The notes beneath the pieces are model-generated. The model was not told where the DNA came from and ran no database searches. It worked only from the letters and a program-made list of their open reading frames with translations. This document shows, one piece after another, positions 20,215-55,050 of a DNA stretch of 64,000 nt. Every line of letters begins with the position of its first letter. Position 1 is the stretch's first letter. The stretch lies in IMG/VR virus record IMGVR_UViG_3300033047_000016; one strand, written 5' to 3'. This stretch comes from a virus. Made by a program: the position numbers and the translations under genes.

Positions 20215-20254
20215 CCCAAAAAGAAATTACGCGCAAGAACTTTCTTGCGCGTAA
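20215..20254 (-). terminator. intrinsic terminator after nadV (13-bp perfect inverted repeat)
   Basis: TTACGCGCAAGAA-CT-TTCTTGCGCGTAA at 20227-20254, followed by TTTCTTTTT on minus strand; overlaps a TTGCGC-N17-TATGTG promoter for the ligase. Confidence 0.7.
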
Positions 20255-20270
20255 CATAGAATTGTTGCGC

Positions 20271-21668
20271 TTAAAGTGAGGCGCGCTCCCGAATGGCCTC
20301 AAACGTGTCGTCAACAAGAAGCTTTCCATTCTTGTACACTGGGCGCAGATAGTTTTTCTCTGACCCATGTGCTCCGACAACCAAACTGTCGCGGCGCACA
20401 GTTTTGAACCCGAACCCACGCTTAACTAGGGCTTGCATACCCTTCTTTGACTTCTTGTCATGATCTGTCATAGGGTCTTTGTACACGTCCTGCCACACAC
20501 CATCAATCTCGATTGCGTTAGCCTTCATGGCATATTTCAAGGTATCCCTGTCGATCTTTTGCAGCAGACCACCGCCCATACCAACAGCGAAATTGTCCCC
20601 TGAGATACCGTGATCGTGCGCAGCAATCACCAATTGAGTGATCTTTTCGATATCCATGCCATCACCTTGAAGCACACGAATTTGCGGCGGAAGAACCTTG
20701 AACCCCTTGGAATTAGTCGTATAACCGAACTGTTCCATAAGAATTTCGATGATATTGAGAGGCATATGGACAGGATCACCACTGTCCGGGCGGGCCACAA
20801 ATACCCCGTCTCTGGCCATGATACGGTCGCGCAGCTTACCGCCAATGATATTGCGCGCAAAGTGCACAGCATCATAGCTGTCAATAACACAGGCGAGCAT
20901 GCCGGTGGGGTGTGCGTCGAGATAGTGCTCCAACATGGCTACTTCGCCATCGCGACCCCAAGCTGTCACAGTGCTGTGCTCTGATGCTGGGATAGAGAAT
21001 CCAACCGGACCATCGGCATTGTAATACATGATTGGTCCGATAAGCGCCTCGACGGTATCGGTGCCCATGAAGTTCACCAAGTGACCCATTCCACCAAGCA
21101 TTGCTGCCTCGGAACATGACGCACCACGTGAGCCAAAGTCGTGTAGTTTGAATGGGATTTCTGCATCTGGATTGTCGGACGTAATCCGCAAGCCGTTGTA
21201 AATAATCTTCTTCACCTTTCGGCTCACGGTGGCAACTGTTGATGGATACCAAACAGCGCGCAGCAGGGCCGTTTCCACGTAGGAGGTAAGCCAAGGAAGG
21301 CGCGGATCAGTGTTGACGACCTGCACCTGAATGTTGCCAGTGGGTAGTACAGTACCTTCAGCAACGGCACTGATTTCGATTGGTAACAACCCATCATGCT
21401 CGTTGACGATGATCATCCAGTCAGCTTCATTGAACGGTTCTCCGTGGGCCTCAAGAAGCTTTTTGGCCATCTTTACATCATCCGAAGTGATCGGGGTAAG
21501 AAGGTATTCTTTGATGAACGCCTGTAATCCGAAGAACACAGTTTCCCGGAACTTACCGCCGCGCGCTTCGATATAGGACGACACACGCGTAGCATTTTCA
21601 GGATACTGAGCGAAGTGAGACACCTTGTAAGAGTCGGTGCGGGTGATTACATTAAGTAGTTTGTGCAT
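20271..21668 (-). CDS. nadV: nicotinamide phosphoribosyltransferase
   Basis: TDSYKVSH, LHDFGSRG, PASEHS, DSYD, RPDSGDP, LQGDG and GMGGGLLQ motifs. Confidence 0.97.
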   Translation of the reverse strand: MHKLLNVITRTDSYKVSHFAQYPENATRVSSYIEARGGKFRETVFFGLQAFIKEYLLTPITSDDVKMAKKLLEAHGEPFNEADWMIIVNEHDGLLPIEISAVAEGTVLPTGNIQVQVVNTDPRLPWLTSYVETALLRAVWYPSTVATVSRKVKKIIYNGLRITSDNPDAEIPFKLHDFGSRGASCSEAAMLGGMGHLVNFMGTDTVEALIGPIMYYNADGPVGFSIPASEHSTVTAWGRDGEVAMLEHYLDAHPTGMLACVIDSYDAVHFARNIIGGKLRDRIMARDGVFVARPDSGDPVHMPLNIIEILMEQFGYTTNSKGFKVLPPQIRVLQGDGMDIEKITQLVIAAHDHGISGDNFAVGMGGGLLQKIDRDTLKYAMKANAIEIDGVWQDVYKDPMTDHDKKSKKGMQALVKRGFGFKTVRRDSLVVGAHGSEKNYLRPVYKNGKLLVDDTFEAIRERASL

Positions 21669-21712
21669 TAGAAAATCCCTTTCTATATTGCGTCCACAGG
21701 TCTATCCTGTGG
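21669..21712 (-). promoter_or_regulatory. two-hairpin leader element before nadV
   Basis: CCACAGG-ATAGA-CCTGTGG, ACGC, then TAGAAA-GGGAT-TTTCTA directly before ATG. Confidence 0.7.
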
Positions 21713-22238
21713 TTATGATGGATTCACATTTGAATCCTTTGTGTAATTTCCATTCCCCTGACATCACCCGGTACAACCCTGATACATCCATCCCCATTTC
21801 ACGACAAAAAGCAGATAAACCGTGAATAACTTCTTTCTTACCGCAGGGGTGTGTCACCAAATATTTCTTGGCGCGAGGGTGTGCAGAGCCGCCCCGCCCC
21901 TTCATCGGACTTGTGTGACCTAATTCACGGTATCTGTGTCTATGGTTATCACCGCGCGTCAACCACTCCAGATTAACCAAACGATTGTCAGATTTATTGC
22001 CATTAAGATGGTTACAATCCATCCCATCACCACCACCGACAAAGGCTTGTAACACCAGCCGGTGGATATAGCGGCGCATAGGTTTCTTCTTCCAAGTACG
22101 TAGATTTACTTGAAAATATCCTGATCCATTGTGGCACGGTTGAAGTATTCTACCAGAATTATAGTTTGATCGCACACGCCCTTCGGAAGACACTTCGTAC
22201 ATACCTCCCGTGTTTGGCACATGCGCCCATCTTTCCAT
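21702..22238 (-). mobile_element. NUMOD4-HNH homing endonuclease inserted in the NAD operon
   Basis: YEVSSEGRVRS (NUMOD4); IHRLV and CNHLNGNKSDNRLVNLEW (HNH). Confidence 0.9.
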
Positions 22239-23266
22239 CAGATTTGCACCATACACTGAATCAAATCGAAATGGTCTTCGAACAGCGCATCGCGGCGCAG
22301 GTTTGCGATAGGAACCCATTTTGCTTTTGCAGCGTCGTCTCCACCACGTATTTTCGGTAGCTCGGTATTGTCCCGTAGGTCAATTTTGAACGCGGTAGTA
22401 ACTGTGCGGCCACGCTGCGATCTATAAGGATCGTCGAATACCTGCCAACTTGTGATGCTGCGATTCAGGAATTCAGGGCGAAGATTGATATTTGTTTCTT
22501 CGATCAACTCTCTAATAGCAGCGTCGCGTGGCGATTCATAACGGTTTACAAATCCGCCCGGAAGCGCCCACAACCCTTTTCCGGGTTGGGCACCACGTTT
22601 AACTAGAAGAATGTGGCCAGATTGAACAACAATTGCGTCGGCAGTATAAAATACCGGTGGATAGGGGGCAAACTCCCACTGCTTGGCATAGGAGATAAGA
22701 TGTTCCTGTTCTGCTTTTACCTGCTTGTAGGCATCGGACATTTGCCAATCTTCCAGCCAGTCTGATACTTCCGCCGGTAAGTGCCACCCATCTGACGTGG
22801 GGCGGTGGCCTTTGAATAAGGCGTTACGAATACCCGTCGCATTCAAATTATTGAAGTTAGGAACTTCTACAGAATCCCACGTAGGGAAACTGCGCAAATA
22901 GAACGAAGACTGGTCTTTTGAGTGTCCGATCAATCCTATGTGTACTGGATCAGGAGTGAACGGCGTGTTGGCAACAGTCATGACTCCAGCCTGAACTCCA
23001 CCCAACCATCGCTGCAAATTATACACGTGATCAACCTGTGGGACGAAGTGGATATAACCAGCAGCGACTTCGTCCGGGTAAACGGCTGAAATCATTGCAA
23101 TACGTTCTGTGGTTGTGAATGGGTTTCGCGCGGTGCGCGGCTGCTGATCGCTCCCAATCACAATAGCCACTTTTTTGGCGCGCATTAGGGCAGTATCAAC
23201 GACAGCCTTGTGTCCCATGTGGAACGGCTGAAAACGGCCAATGAAAGCCAGTACATCATAATCCAT
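22238..23266 (-). CDS. nadM: bifunctional NMN adenylyltransferase / ADP-ribose pyrophosphatase (NadM-Nudix)
   Basis: IGRFQPFHMGH, RNPF, NATGIR; Nudix box GGFV..YESPRDAAIRELIEET; GGDDA; FEDH. Confidence 0.95.
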   Translation of the reverse strand: MDYDVLAFIGRFQPFHMGHKAVVDTALMRAKKVAIVIGSDQQPRTARNPFTTTERIAMISAVYPDEVAAGYIHFVPQVDHVYNLQRWLGGVQAGVMTVANTPFTPDPVHIGLIGHSKDQSSFYLRSFPTWDSVEVPNFNNLNATGIRNALFKGHRPTSDGWHLPAEVSDWLEDWQMSDAYKQVKAEQEHLISYAKQWEFAPYPPVFYTADAIVVQSGHILLVKRGAQPGKGLWALPGGFVNRYESPRDAAIRELIEETNINLRPEFLNRSITSWQVFDDPYRSQRGRTVTTAFKIDLRDNTELPKIRGGDDAAKAKWVPIANLRRDALFEDHFDLIQCMVQI

Positions 23267-23308
23267 AACGAAATCCCTTCGTTTGTATGCGTCTGTCTAT
23301 CCAACGAC
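23267..23308 (-). promoter_or_regulatory. two-hairpin leader element before nadM-Nudix
   Basis: GTCGTTGG-ATAGA-CAGAC GC, then AACGAA-GGGAT-TTCGTT directly before ATG. Confidence 0.7.
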
Positions 23309-23316
23309 TTGTTGTT

Positions 23317-23345
23317 GGTATACACCCGCTGACGCGGGCTGTCAA
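23317..23345 (-). promoter_or_regulatory. sigma70-like promoter of the NAD operon; spacer holds the CCCGC-GTCA-GCGGG hairpin
   Basis: TTGACA-N17-TATACC on minus strand. Confidence 0.7.
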
Positions 23346-23346
23346 G

Positions 23347-23832
23347 TCAATATAGTCCGGGATTGTGTAATCCATCAGAGAATGTGAAAGTTTCCACATT
23401 TCCACCTGTGTAAGCATCATAGTGCATAGCCGTTTTAACTGACTCTTCTGCTGATTTTCCTGCATGCAAAGCACCAAGCGCATAGGTGGAACCACTTCCT
23501 ATAGCTTCGTACTCACCGGTCAAGCGCAGGGAACTACCATCACTACCGATTGACCAGATGCGGCGGTCTTTCCCAACCAGCATGACAGTGCCAGATAATT
23601 CCCCCATATCTGGCATGTCTTCCAAATGCAGATAGAAATCTTGAGGAGCGACATCGTCTGGGATTAAATCAATCCACGCATACATGCGGTGCATTATAGC
23701 CAAGTGCCCAACGAAACCAAACAGATAATCGTCCAACCTACCAACTTTTTTCACGCCGTTACAAAGCTCACTGTTGAACGACATCATAGTATCCCCGGCG
23801 ATGATTCCGTCTTTGTAACAAATAGTACTCAT
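23347..23832 (-). CDS. proteasome-subunit/HslV-like Ntn peptidase
   Basis: N-terminal STI.Y.DG.IAGD and AIGSGSTYALGAL...D.YTGG. Confidence 0.8.
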   Translation of the reverse strand: MSTICYKDGIIAGDTMMSFNSELCNGVKKVGRLDDYLFGFVGHLAIMHRMYAWIDLIPDDVAPQDFYLHLEDMPDMGELSGTVMLVGKDRRIWSIGSDGSSLRLTGEYEAIGSGSTYALGALHAGKSAEESVKTAMHYDAYTGGNVETFTFSDGLHNPGLY

Positions 23833-24326
23833 GTGTTGACCACCAGCACTTTGTCAAACCCTTCCGCCTCTGTGGGCACCACCATGCAGTTGCGCATAGA
23901 AAGGTCGATGTGGTCCGGGATGGTCTTACCCGGACGCCCCAACAAGCGCGTCTGCCGCGTGGTTTCGTCCGTCTGCACAAAAATGCAGAGAGTGAAATAT
24001 GTCGCAGGAATCTGAGACAGCACACCCTTCCGCTTCTTCTCAGTCAGGTTGGTCTGATCCCAGACAATCGACGCACCATCCTTCAGTGCTTGCTTAAACG
24101 CCGCATGAACTGCGGAGGTGGCAGGCTTAATCTCCGCAGCAAACACGTCGTTATATGTCAACCCACGCCACCCAGCGGCGTCCTCGATCAAGTCGTCCGT
24201 AGACAGATGTACACCATCACCCTCGAATTGGGCACGAATTGTGCTTTTACCAGACGCTGGGAGTCCGCTCAACATAACGAAGAACGGCCCCGAATGTTGT
24301 ATCCCGCTCAAAAAACCATCGTTCAT
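23829..24326 (-). CDS. polynucleotide kinase-like P-loop protein (AAA_33)
   Basis: LSGLPASGKST, STDD and VWDQTNL...R motifs. Confidence 0.85.
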   Translation of the reverse strand: MNDGFLSGIQHSGPFFVMLSGLPASGKSTIRAQFEGDGVHLSTDDLIEDAAGWRGLTYNDVFAAEIKPATSAVHAAFKQALKDGASIVWDQTNLTEKKRKGVLSQIPATYFTLCIFVQTDETTRQTRLLGRPGKTIPDHIDLSMRNCMVVPTEAEGFDKVLVVNT

Positions 24327-25585
24327 TTTGAATCCTCCTTAATATTCCATTCGTTGTCAAGCGCAGTGAATACCGTGCTATCAACAAGACTTTGACGCAT
24401 TTCAGCCCACTTCGTTTCCGATGTCAAGCCGCTATTTATGATCTTCATGACTCCGTCATATGGTGTCTCAACTTTACCATCCCACAAGCCAAACACTTGT
24501 GCACGCTCCAGATTGGTCAAATCTCCTTCGGAACCTATGGCGAAGTCCTTCTTAGATACATAACCATCCCGTGACCTATTGTAAAGAGCCGAGACGTCTG
24601 TAGCCAAGGTATAGACAAAACCCCAGAACGAGTCAACATACGCTGACACCTTTTTACGCTCGTCCTCCGGCAACAGCGGCAACAAGTCGTCAACCTTCCC
24701 TTCAAGGATGGCCTCAACAAGAGTACGCTCAGTACGCGACGCCTCTTTCACCTTGTGCAAGATGCTGTACGTAGCCGTCTTCACCTTCACACGGTGACCA
24801 CTTTCCCACTGTACGACGATGCCTTCATCAAAATCGTCGCTGGCTTTAACAGCGTCGATGTAGAGTGTCGGATCACCTTCAATAGGATCGTAAGTACGCG
24901 CTGACGGAACGCCAAAACGTTTTGCAATTGCAGCCACCGCGTCCGGCAACATGTACCGCCCACTGTCGTTGTAGCGAATGGCTAGAAGGACCATATCAGG
25001 TTCCTCGCCATAGTTAACCACAATGCGATTTGCAGGAGATATGTATTCGAACAATGGCGTGTAGCCGTGCTCTATGTAGTAATTAGCAATCGCTGCGTAG
25101 CGCGGATGCTGCTGAATCCACGCCTCGGCGTCCAACGCGGTGTCGGTGATGCCCATCTTTGTGCCCCAGCGGATGCCCGCAGAAGTCCACAACGGACGCA
25201 GCATTGACCCGTCAACCTTGTCACACACCCAGTGTGGCGCAGAGAAGTCCAACACAGAAATATCAACACCTTCGTTCTCACCGGCGTTGAAAAACTTGTG
25301 AAACGGACGAGAAGCCAGCGCACCTGATGCCGTGTGAAACGCGATACCGCGACACTCACGACGCACAGCGGCACGAAGGTTCCACTCGTCAACACAGTGC
25401 TGATCATATGGATCGTACGGGTACGCCTCTGTTTCAAACGGTGGGAAAGTGTCAGCGCCCATCTTCACATAGTTGATGAACGTGTGGCCACTATCTTTCT
25501 CAACAACGCGAAAACTGTCCTCGTCGATGTGTGGAAGAACGTGAGAAATGTGTTGGATGAGCGGGAAGTCGTAAGAATGTTCCAT
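24323..25585 (-). CDS. T4 Rnl1-family RNA ligase
   Basis: RECRGI, FHKFFN, KVDGS, FEY.SP.NRIVV.Y, EGIVV and KVK motifs. Confidence 0.9.
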   Translation of the reverse strand: MEHSYDFPLIQHISHVLPHIDEDSFRVVEKDSGHTFINYVKMGADTFPPFETEAYPYDPYDQHCVDEWNLRAAVRRECRGIAFHTASGALASRPFHKFFNAGENEGVDISVLDFSAPHWVCDKVDGSMLRPLWTSAGIRWGTKMGITDTALDAEAWIQQHPRYAAIANYYIEHGYTPLFEYISPANRIVVNYGEEPDMVLLAIRYNDSGRYMLPDAVAAIAKRFGVPSARTYDPIEGDPTLYIDAVKASDDFDEGIVVQWESGHRVKVKTATYSILHKVKEASRTERTLVEAILEGKVDDLLPLLPEDERKKVSAYVDSFWGFVYTLATDVSALYNRSRDGYVSKKDFAIGSEGDLTNLERAQVFGLWDGKVETPYDGVMKIINSGLTSETKWAEMRQSLVDSTVFTALDNEWNIKEDSK

Positions 25586-55022: not shown

Positions 55023-55050
55023 AGGCCCGCGTCAGCGGGCCTTTTCTTTT
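55023..55050 (+). terminator. intrinsic terminator at the convergence point
   Basis: AGGCCCGC-GTCA-GCGGGCCT followed by TTTCTTTT. Confidence 0.8.

Follow-up and report, generated by a model that had tools for sequence, protein, structure and literature searches.

The 64,000-nt stretch of the IMG/VR virus record IMGVR_UViG_3300033047_000016 analysed here (hereafter the window) carries on its minus strand two copies of a short two-hairpin RNA leader, placed directly in front of nadM-Nudix and nadV, two genes of nicotinamide adenine dinucleotide (NAD) salvage. The leader represents a family that is widespread but uncatalogued, found almost only before NAD-making genes in phages and in some bacteria, and it most likely sets the translation level of the NAD-salvage enzymes. 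Together, nadV and nadM-Nudix constitute NARP2, a counter-defence by which phages restore NAD+ once immune systems have depleted it; the pathway is reported to be metabolically costly, consuming phosphoribosyl pyrophosphate (PRPP) and overproducing NAD+, and the paper describing it mentions no leader (10.1101/2024.02.11.579819). This cost provides a rationale for a brake on its translation, and a dedicated RNA control element on the NARP2 genes, if true, would be the first known regulatory layer of the pathway.

Both elements in the window are 41–44 nt long and share one build: an AUAGA pentaloop on a stem of about 7 bp, a linker poor in G, and a 6-bp stem that holds the Shine-Dalgarno (SD) sequence in a pentaloop and ends at the ATG (Table 1). 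The leader letters quoted in the first-pass annotation, a reading of the sequence alone, are all present on the minus strand, and its placement of the SD in hairpin 2, abutting the start codon, is true of both leaders. Its statement that the stems differ yet pair is correct for hairpin 2 (six of six pairs in both copies) and for hairpin 1 of nadV (seven of seven) and fails for hairpin 1 of nadM, where only five of seven positions pair. The GACGCA word, listed there as a common core, lies in the 3' arm of one leader and in the linker of the other, and is not conserved in the family. The exact words GGATAGAC and AAGGGATTT each occur three times in the 64 kb, two of the occurrences being the leader sites in either case.

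The two copies are of unequal quality. A covariance model built from 20 copies aligned without fitting to the structure in 49 columns (model R1, alignment A3) scores the nadV leader at 45.6 bits and the nadM leader at 33.8 bits. With a model made from IMG/VR sequences alone and without the window sequence (R3), which is biased towards the word AAAGGAGUUUU, the nadV leader heads the matches of the window (34.4 bits, E 1.2e-5), followed by the nadM leader, which is second best at 12.9 bits and, with E 0.88, not significant by itself. The nadM copy is the weakest of its clade: two positions of its hairpin 1 are unpaired, and its linker, at 5 nt, is of the shortest class; the consensus fold of its hairpin 1 is worth only -0.6 kcal/mol, and a competing CCAAC/GUUGG hairpin wins in the free fold. 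It occupies, nevertheless, the position homologous to that of the strong nadM leaders of the relatives, and in one of the two closest relatives (L029) the nadM leader is intact at 52.5 bits; compared with L029, hairpin 1 of the window has one A-U to U-A double change.

Anatomy and distribution of the leader family

Altogether 164 distinct copies were collected from phages, IMG/VR contigs and proteobacterial genomes. Loop 1 reads AUAGA in 75% of them and AGAGA in 12%, the rest being ACAGA, AGUGA or AAAGA; A1, G4 and A5 never vary (entropy 0), in contrast to the stems, all of whose positions drift. Hairpin 1 is closed by G-C in 77% of copies, and by C-G in those with an AGAGA or AGUGA loop. The second loop reads GGANN, with an A-U closing pair in 96%; the linker measures 5–16 nt and contains only 6% G; and the ATG follows hairpin 2 after 0–3 nt or overlaps its last base. 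Both window copies present a stem 1 of about 7 bp around G-AUAGA-C, in keeping with the A-N-A-G-A loop and G-C or C-G closure of the family, a 6-bp hairpin 2 closed by A-U with the ATG directly after it, and a sense-strand position immediately before nadM-Nudix or nadV. Their loop 2, GGGAU in both, is a rare variant found in 4 of the 164 copies.

Covariation supports both helices. In the unfitted alignment A3, 93.5% of the cells are paired versus 56.8% after shuffling; both partners have changed in 12 of the 13 pairs, and slid controls give 30–53%. The 138 model-aligned sequences, whose alignment is fitted to the structure, give the same picture: 92.7% paired versus 52.8% shuffled, all 13 pairs changed on both sides, and slid controls at 30–43%. 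The pairs with the highest mutual information are the 13 helix pairs, and between helix 1 and either helix 2 or the linker no value exceeds 0.32 bits. The hairpins thus behave as independent modules with invariant loops, as in protein-read operators. Outside the two helices the mutual information gave no sign of a pseudoknot, kissing loops or mutually exclusive helices, and thus none of the tertiary or alternative-pairing covariation expected of a classical riboswitch. A structural variant was seen in locus L013 (788-842 and 2925-2979), where hairpin 1 GGAUAGACC is kept on both nadM and nadV and hairpin 2 is replaced by CUCC-CAAAU-UGGAG, which pairs the SD itself with an anti-SD.

The association of the element with the NAD genes is strict. 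An R1 search of the window and 17 loci matched only nadM and nadV leaders. The element precedes both genes in phages DSS3P8, RcXuper, MD18 and RpAliso and in jumbo-phage contigs retrieved through NadV, and exactly two strong R1 matches were found in each of four complete roseophage genomes and one 330-kb jumbo phage (genome range 146–330 kb). With just two copies in the window and in each complete genome of a relative, a phage-wide promoter or repeat was ruled out. The loci retrieved through NadM yielded 122 matches in the 89 viral ones, without exception on the strand of the gene, and 34 in the 80 bacterial ones; of the 156 matches in nadM-oriented loci, 155 share the strand of nadM. The bacterial copies come from Xanthomonas, Stenotrophomonas, Lysobacter, Luteimonas, Asticcacaulis, Caulobacter, Burkholderia, Ralstonia, Marinobacter, Budvicia, Sulfurovum and others, and a low-sensitivity scan of 150 random Pseudomonadota genomes gave zero matches.

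The gene immediately downstream in the NadM-retrieved loci is nadM in 68 cases, nadV in 70 and another gene in 18, these 18 including the quinolinate synthase gene nadA and genes for several small proteins without a Pfam family. The same bias towards NAD genes appeared in a motif-first scan, in which an exact pattern independent of any protein was run on IMG/VR and returned 90 stretches. A model applied to 80 of these 90 (R2) gave 112 matches, 46 before NadV, 46 before NadM and 20 before other genes. Nearly all R2 matches of 32 bits or more lie in stretches encoding nadM or nadV, the exceptions being L225 and L247, short stretches in which the downstream gene is cut off; matches below 28 bits are chance-like, and a borderline one (L204, 31.5 bits) has no NAD gene nearby. 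The proposal that the two genes share a structured RNA leader specific to NAD salvage is therefore borne out, the covariation and the gene association lying far beyond chance.

The covariance model may also be used as an annotation marker, since it flagged nadA and several small unknown genes as members of the same regulon. NadA, an enzyme of de novo NAD synthesis, is led by the element in two phage contigs (L069:1870-2804 and L076:1792-). At least six families of small Pfam-less proteins (81–215 aa) are led by it beside nadM or nadV (Table 1), and these are candidate new members of a phage NAD regulon.

Some loci show rearrangements around nadV. In L263 (6967-9650; also in L208 and L242) nadV is broken into halves, the N-terminal one of 236 aa and the C-terminal one of 233 aa, separated in L263 by a 378-aa ORF resembling GIY-YIG/SegE (Pfam matches below the cut-off), and each half in L263 has its own two-hairpin leader (43.7 and 52.4 bits). 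In L240 a 389-aa ORF (1514-2683) lies directly 5' of the nadV leader; its N-terminus is GIY-YIG-like by eye, with no Pfam match. The slot 5' of the nadV leader, occupied by an HNH gene in the window and by this ORF in an unrelated phage, may be a favoured landing site for endonuclease-type genes.

Possible reader of the leader and rival explanations

Hairpin 2 would cage the ribosome-binding site, with the SD (GGA) in a five-nucleotide loop above an A-U closing pair and the start codon at the stem base, an arrangement in which initiation should require the 30S subunit to melt this hairpin. Hairpin 1, a stem of free sequence carrying the fixed A-N-A-G-A loop, may serve as the recognition handle for a trans-acting reader which, bound there and probably touching hairpin 2, would keep the site closed or block the G-poor standby linker. 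The outcome would be a limit on the translation of nadM and nadV, and in other genomes also of nadA and of small genes nearby.

Free stems, fixed loop letters, independent hairpins and a free linker fit a protein-read operator better than a folded aptamer. As the element works across many hosts, in alpha-, beta-, gamma- and epsilon-type bacteria, and on internal cistrons as well as at 5' ends, its reader should travel with the cassette. The reading we prefer, and hold tentatively, is accordingly a pathway-specific translational operator recognised by such a factor. The gene between nadM and nadV was ruled out as the reader: it belongs to three unrelated families in the relatives and is an HNH gene in the window. 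With this middle gene and CsrA (see below) excluded, and with NadM-Nudix and NadV as the constant companions of the element, autogenous control is favoured and NadM-Nudix is the likelier reader of the two. It takes up the larger part of our confidence in the operator, which leaves it, considered by itself, a possible but rather unlikely reader. In three contigs of at least 108 kb where the matched stretch held the motif and nadV without nadM, NadM proved to be encoded elsewhere on each contig. Reading of the leader by NadM-Nudix would amount to autogenous feedback, possibly modulated by enzyme-bound NAD, nicotinamide mononucleotide (NMN) or ADP-ribose, and this metabolic enzyme would then moonlight as an RNA-binding repressor, which would be new.

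A number of observations weigh against this interpretation. The binding of a protein to the leader is itself a step that we infer, and to our knowledge no RNA-binding activity of NadM-Nudix has been reported. NadM and NadV are both present with the motif in every genome that could be checked and are not separable as partners, and the loci were mostly retrieved through NadM, which biases their co-occurrence. The covariance-model scan near nadV and nadM homologs, proposed in the first-pass annotation, found the element at many phage and bacterial loci and found none at many others: no copy was present in Psychrobacter (52% identity) and Moraxella, the closest bacterial holders of NadM, or at the nadM/nadV of phage loci L011, L012, L014 and L015. 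The presence of the motif changes at least 10–17 times on the NadM tree, and in an underpowered comparison of 10 independent contrasts no NadM column differed consistently with it. The nadM copy of the window is also weak, as its 12.9 bits with R3 indicate. The element is compact enough for direct tests.

The metabolite itself may be the signal. A very small riboswitch, in which the RNA itself would bind NAD+, NMN, ADP-ribose, nicotinamide or PRPP and the hairpin over the ribosome-binding site would open more or less readily as a result, would explain the strict pathway specificity over nadM, nadV and nadA and the spread over phages and several proteobacterial classes with no constant partner gene besides the regulated ones; two short hairpins with invariant loops, a free linker and the SD in the second also resemble the design of the guanidine-II (mini-ykkC) riboswitch. 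The RNA, however, offers only about eight invariant bases, three of which are the SD, and has no internal loop, junction or pseudoknot; neither hairpin covaries with the other or with the linker, which itself varies between 5 and 16 nt, the loops are not complementary, so that a kissing complex of the guanidine-II type is unsupported, and no NAD+-I, NAD+-II or other Rfam model is matched. We regard such a riboswitch as unlikely, if worth serious attention. Slightly less probable again is its most specific form, a 45-nt element that would be a new and exceptionally small riboswitch for an NAD metabolite (NAD+, NMN or ADP-ribose), turning on NARP2 only upon defence-driven NAD depletion. If a riboswitch it were, this would be a third, very small NAD-related one, and new.

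The preferred operator has to be weighed also against explanations that dispense with a dedicated factor. If hairpin 1 were a stabiliser of the 5' or intercistronic mRNA and hairpin 2 a fixed brake, the two tuning and insulating initiation, the low folding energy of hairpin 2 in the window leaders (-1.9 to -3.1 kcal/mol) would suit a constant mild brake, and the occurrence of the element on internal cistrons and on both halves of the split nadV would be natural. A pure stability element, however, would not fix the letters A1, G4 and A5 of loop 1 while the stems drift and is not expected to be confined to NAD genes at two copies per 146–330 kb genome, and this makes it improbable in our view. 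Reading by a global RNA-binding protein of the host (CsrA/RsmA, Hfq, ProQ or ribosomal protein S1) appears more doubtful still: the A-GGA loop of hairpin 2 over the SD is of the CsrA site type, but loop 1 lacks GGA and a global regulator would not be expected to have its sites limited to two NAD genes per genome. The doubt about CsrA already voiced in the first-pass annotation was justified, as the hairpin-1 loop of the jumbo-phage variant contains no GGA and CsrA (PF02599) was not found in the motif-bearing Asticcacaulis and Burkholderia genomes, two of the five motif-bearing genomes; CsrA is therefore excluded as a universal reader. Least credible by far is a signal at the DNA level, whether a hairpin promoter or a palindromic operator bound by NrtR or another transcription factor. 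NrtR-type control of nadM and nadV is known in bacteria and hairpin 1 is an inverted repeat, but only its 5-nt spacer is constant, the arms being unconstrained in sequence, and the nadV copy lies inside the operon just after a coding region. The frequent G-U wobble pairs, which are A-C mismatches on the other strand, together with the adherence of the copies to the coding strand, argue that the structure belongs to RNA and not to a DNA palindrome.

The phage locus

The window phage is related to the roseophages of about 147 kb DSS3P8, vB_RpoS-V10, RcXuper, MD18 and RpAliso, with about 68% nucleotide identity over coding regions. The minus-strand gene order RNA ligase, polynucleotide-kinase-like, proteasome-beta-like, nadM-Nudix, small variable gene, nadV and DNA ligase is common to the window and its relatives. 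From the sequence, the NAD-salvage unit reads as promoter, leader, nadM, HNH, leader, nadV and terminator, so that the nadV leader would be internal to the mRNA; a transcript from the promoter-like site would begin a few bases 5' of hairpin 1 of nadM. A site of the form TTGACA-N17-TA.... is found at the equivalent place in DSS3P8, RcXuper, MD18 and RpAliso; a simple promoter scan omits the site of the window, whose -10 box is without the final T.

The HNH gene starts in an overlap with the nadM stop (TGATG), and its own stop codon UAG (21704-21702) sits within the loop of the nadV hairpin 1. In the relatives this slot is filled by genes of three unrelated small families, none of which has a member elsewhere in the window. 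L028, the second of the two closest relatives, lacks the HNH gene; in the middle slot it has a gene of the DSS3P8 gp111 type that likewise ends in T-G-stop at the loop UAG. The HNH gene has therefore taken the place of that gene 5' of hairpin 1, its reading frame running out through the former gene end. The claim of the first-pass annotation that the element outlasted the insertion of the HNH gene, whose stop lies in the hairpin-1 loop, is borne out by this. The L028 middle gene (925-1240) contains an in-frame stop and is either a pseudogene or affected by a sequencing error. Loop-borne stop codons were ruled out as a general means of coupling: 16 of 196 copies have one, against 12 and 8 for the control frames.

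Immediately 5' of the NAD genes, here and in the relatives, lie the RNA ligase, polynucleotide-kinase-like and proteasome-beta-like genes (23347-25585, minus strand), which read as an RNA-repair module adjoining the NAD-reconstitution module. A GC-rich hairpin, NNCGCGTCAGCGNN, occurs in nine copies in the window versus 0.42 expected, on both strands and with covarying outer pairs, at positions 1518, 14366, 18385, 23325, 47091, 54227, 54379, 55026 and 57374. A T-run follows only the copy at 55026 (plus strand), one copy fills the spacer of the nadM promoter-like site, and the same 14-mer forms the terminator after nadV in RpAliso (L004:5342).

Table 1. Features of the NAD-salvage unit of the window and small proteins led by the element in other loci
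Feature	Position	Strand	Sequence or remarks
Promoter-like site of the nadM-HNH-nadV unit	23317..23345	-	TTGACA 23345-23340, 17-nt spacer, TATACC 23322-23317
nadM-Nudix leader, degenerate copy	23267..23307	-	then ATG at 23266
nadM hairpin 1	23307-23289	-	UCGUUGG-AUAGA-CAGACGC; loop AUAGA 23300-23296
nadM linker	23288-23284	-	AUACA
nadM hairpin 2	23283-23267	-	AACGAA-GGGAU-UUCGUU; loop GGGAU 23277-23273
nadM-Nudix, NMN adenylyltransferase fused to ADP-ribose pyrophosphatase domain	22238..23266	-	Pfam CTP_transf_like + NUDIX; annotated likewise in relatives
HNH homing-endonuclease gene, variable slot between nadM and nadV	21702..22238	-	Pfam NUMOD4 + HNH_3
nadV leader, canonical copy, internal to operon mRNA (predicted)	21669..21712	-	then ATG at 21668
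nadV hairpin 1	21712-21694	-	CCACAGG-AUAGA-CCUGUGG; loop AUAGA 21705-21701
nadV linker	21693-21686	-	ACGCAAUA
nadV hairpin 2	21685-21669	-	UAGAAA-GGGAU-UUUCUA; loop GGGAU 21679-21675
nadV, nicotinamide phosphoribosyltransferase	20271..21668	-	Pfam NAMPT_N + NAPRTase
Intrinsic-terminator-like hairpin closing the nadM-HNH-nadV unit	20226..20255	-	13 pairs + T-run
Small motif-led proteins	L052:2323-2967, L090:2661-2984, L114:2084-2455, L113:2455-2808, L105:2523-2987, L261:3018-3260		

Relation to known systems

The search of Rfam suggested in the first-pass annotation yielded no described family. Rfam 15, which we take to include NAD+-I, NAD+-II, PyrR RF00515 and mini-ykkC, gave no match at the gathering score in the window, and no family reached E 10 at the leader positions in window 21600-23420 and in seven other motif-bearing loci. 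In the literature searches made on nadV or nadM with riboswitch, leader or RNA motif, no description of the element was found.

The known NAD-related leaders NAD+-I (nadA motif) and NAD+-II (pnuC motif) resemble our element in being cis-acting leaders of genes for NAD biosynthesis or transport, and the NAD+-II riboswitch also overlaps the SD. Unlike the leader described here, they are built of bulged stems or a pseudoknot, and their internal loops are conserved. CsrA/RsmA sites share with it the A-GGA over the SD and differ in the points discussed above, the restriction of the element to NAD genes among them. In the PyrR binding loop (RF00515) an enzyme-like protein reads a leader hairpin of its own pathway, and the jumbo-phage variant of hairpin 1, CC-AGAGA-GG, resembles the conserved PyrR loop; our leaders, however, have no match to RF00515 at E 10 or better and no antiterminator/terminator switch, mostly carry G-AUAGA-C, and belong to the NAD and not the pyrimidine pathway.

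The closest likenesses are of two kinds. With guanidine-II (mini-ykkC) the leader has in common two small hairpins, invariance of the loops only, a linker free in length and sequence, and a predicted translational control through the SD. The guanidine-II loops are identical ACGR tetraloops that pair together, whereas those of the leader are unlike, non-complementary pentaloops that show no loop-loop covariation. With autogenous operators, for which we take E. coli thrS read by ThrRS, gene 43 and gene 32 of phage T4, and the MS2 coat protein on the replicase hairpin as examples, it shares short hairpins with sequence-specific loops at or near the SD and the start codon, stems free to covary, a probable control of translation initiation, and a location on the regulated genes themselves. 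The leader differs from these operators in that one design serves two to four genes of one pathway and has been spread by transfer among numerous phages and bacteria, that its reader is at present only presumed, and that the loops ANAGA and GGANN match none of those named. On this comparison the element would appear to work most like the autogenous translational operators and to be designed most like guanidine-II, while being a member of neither group.

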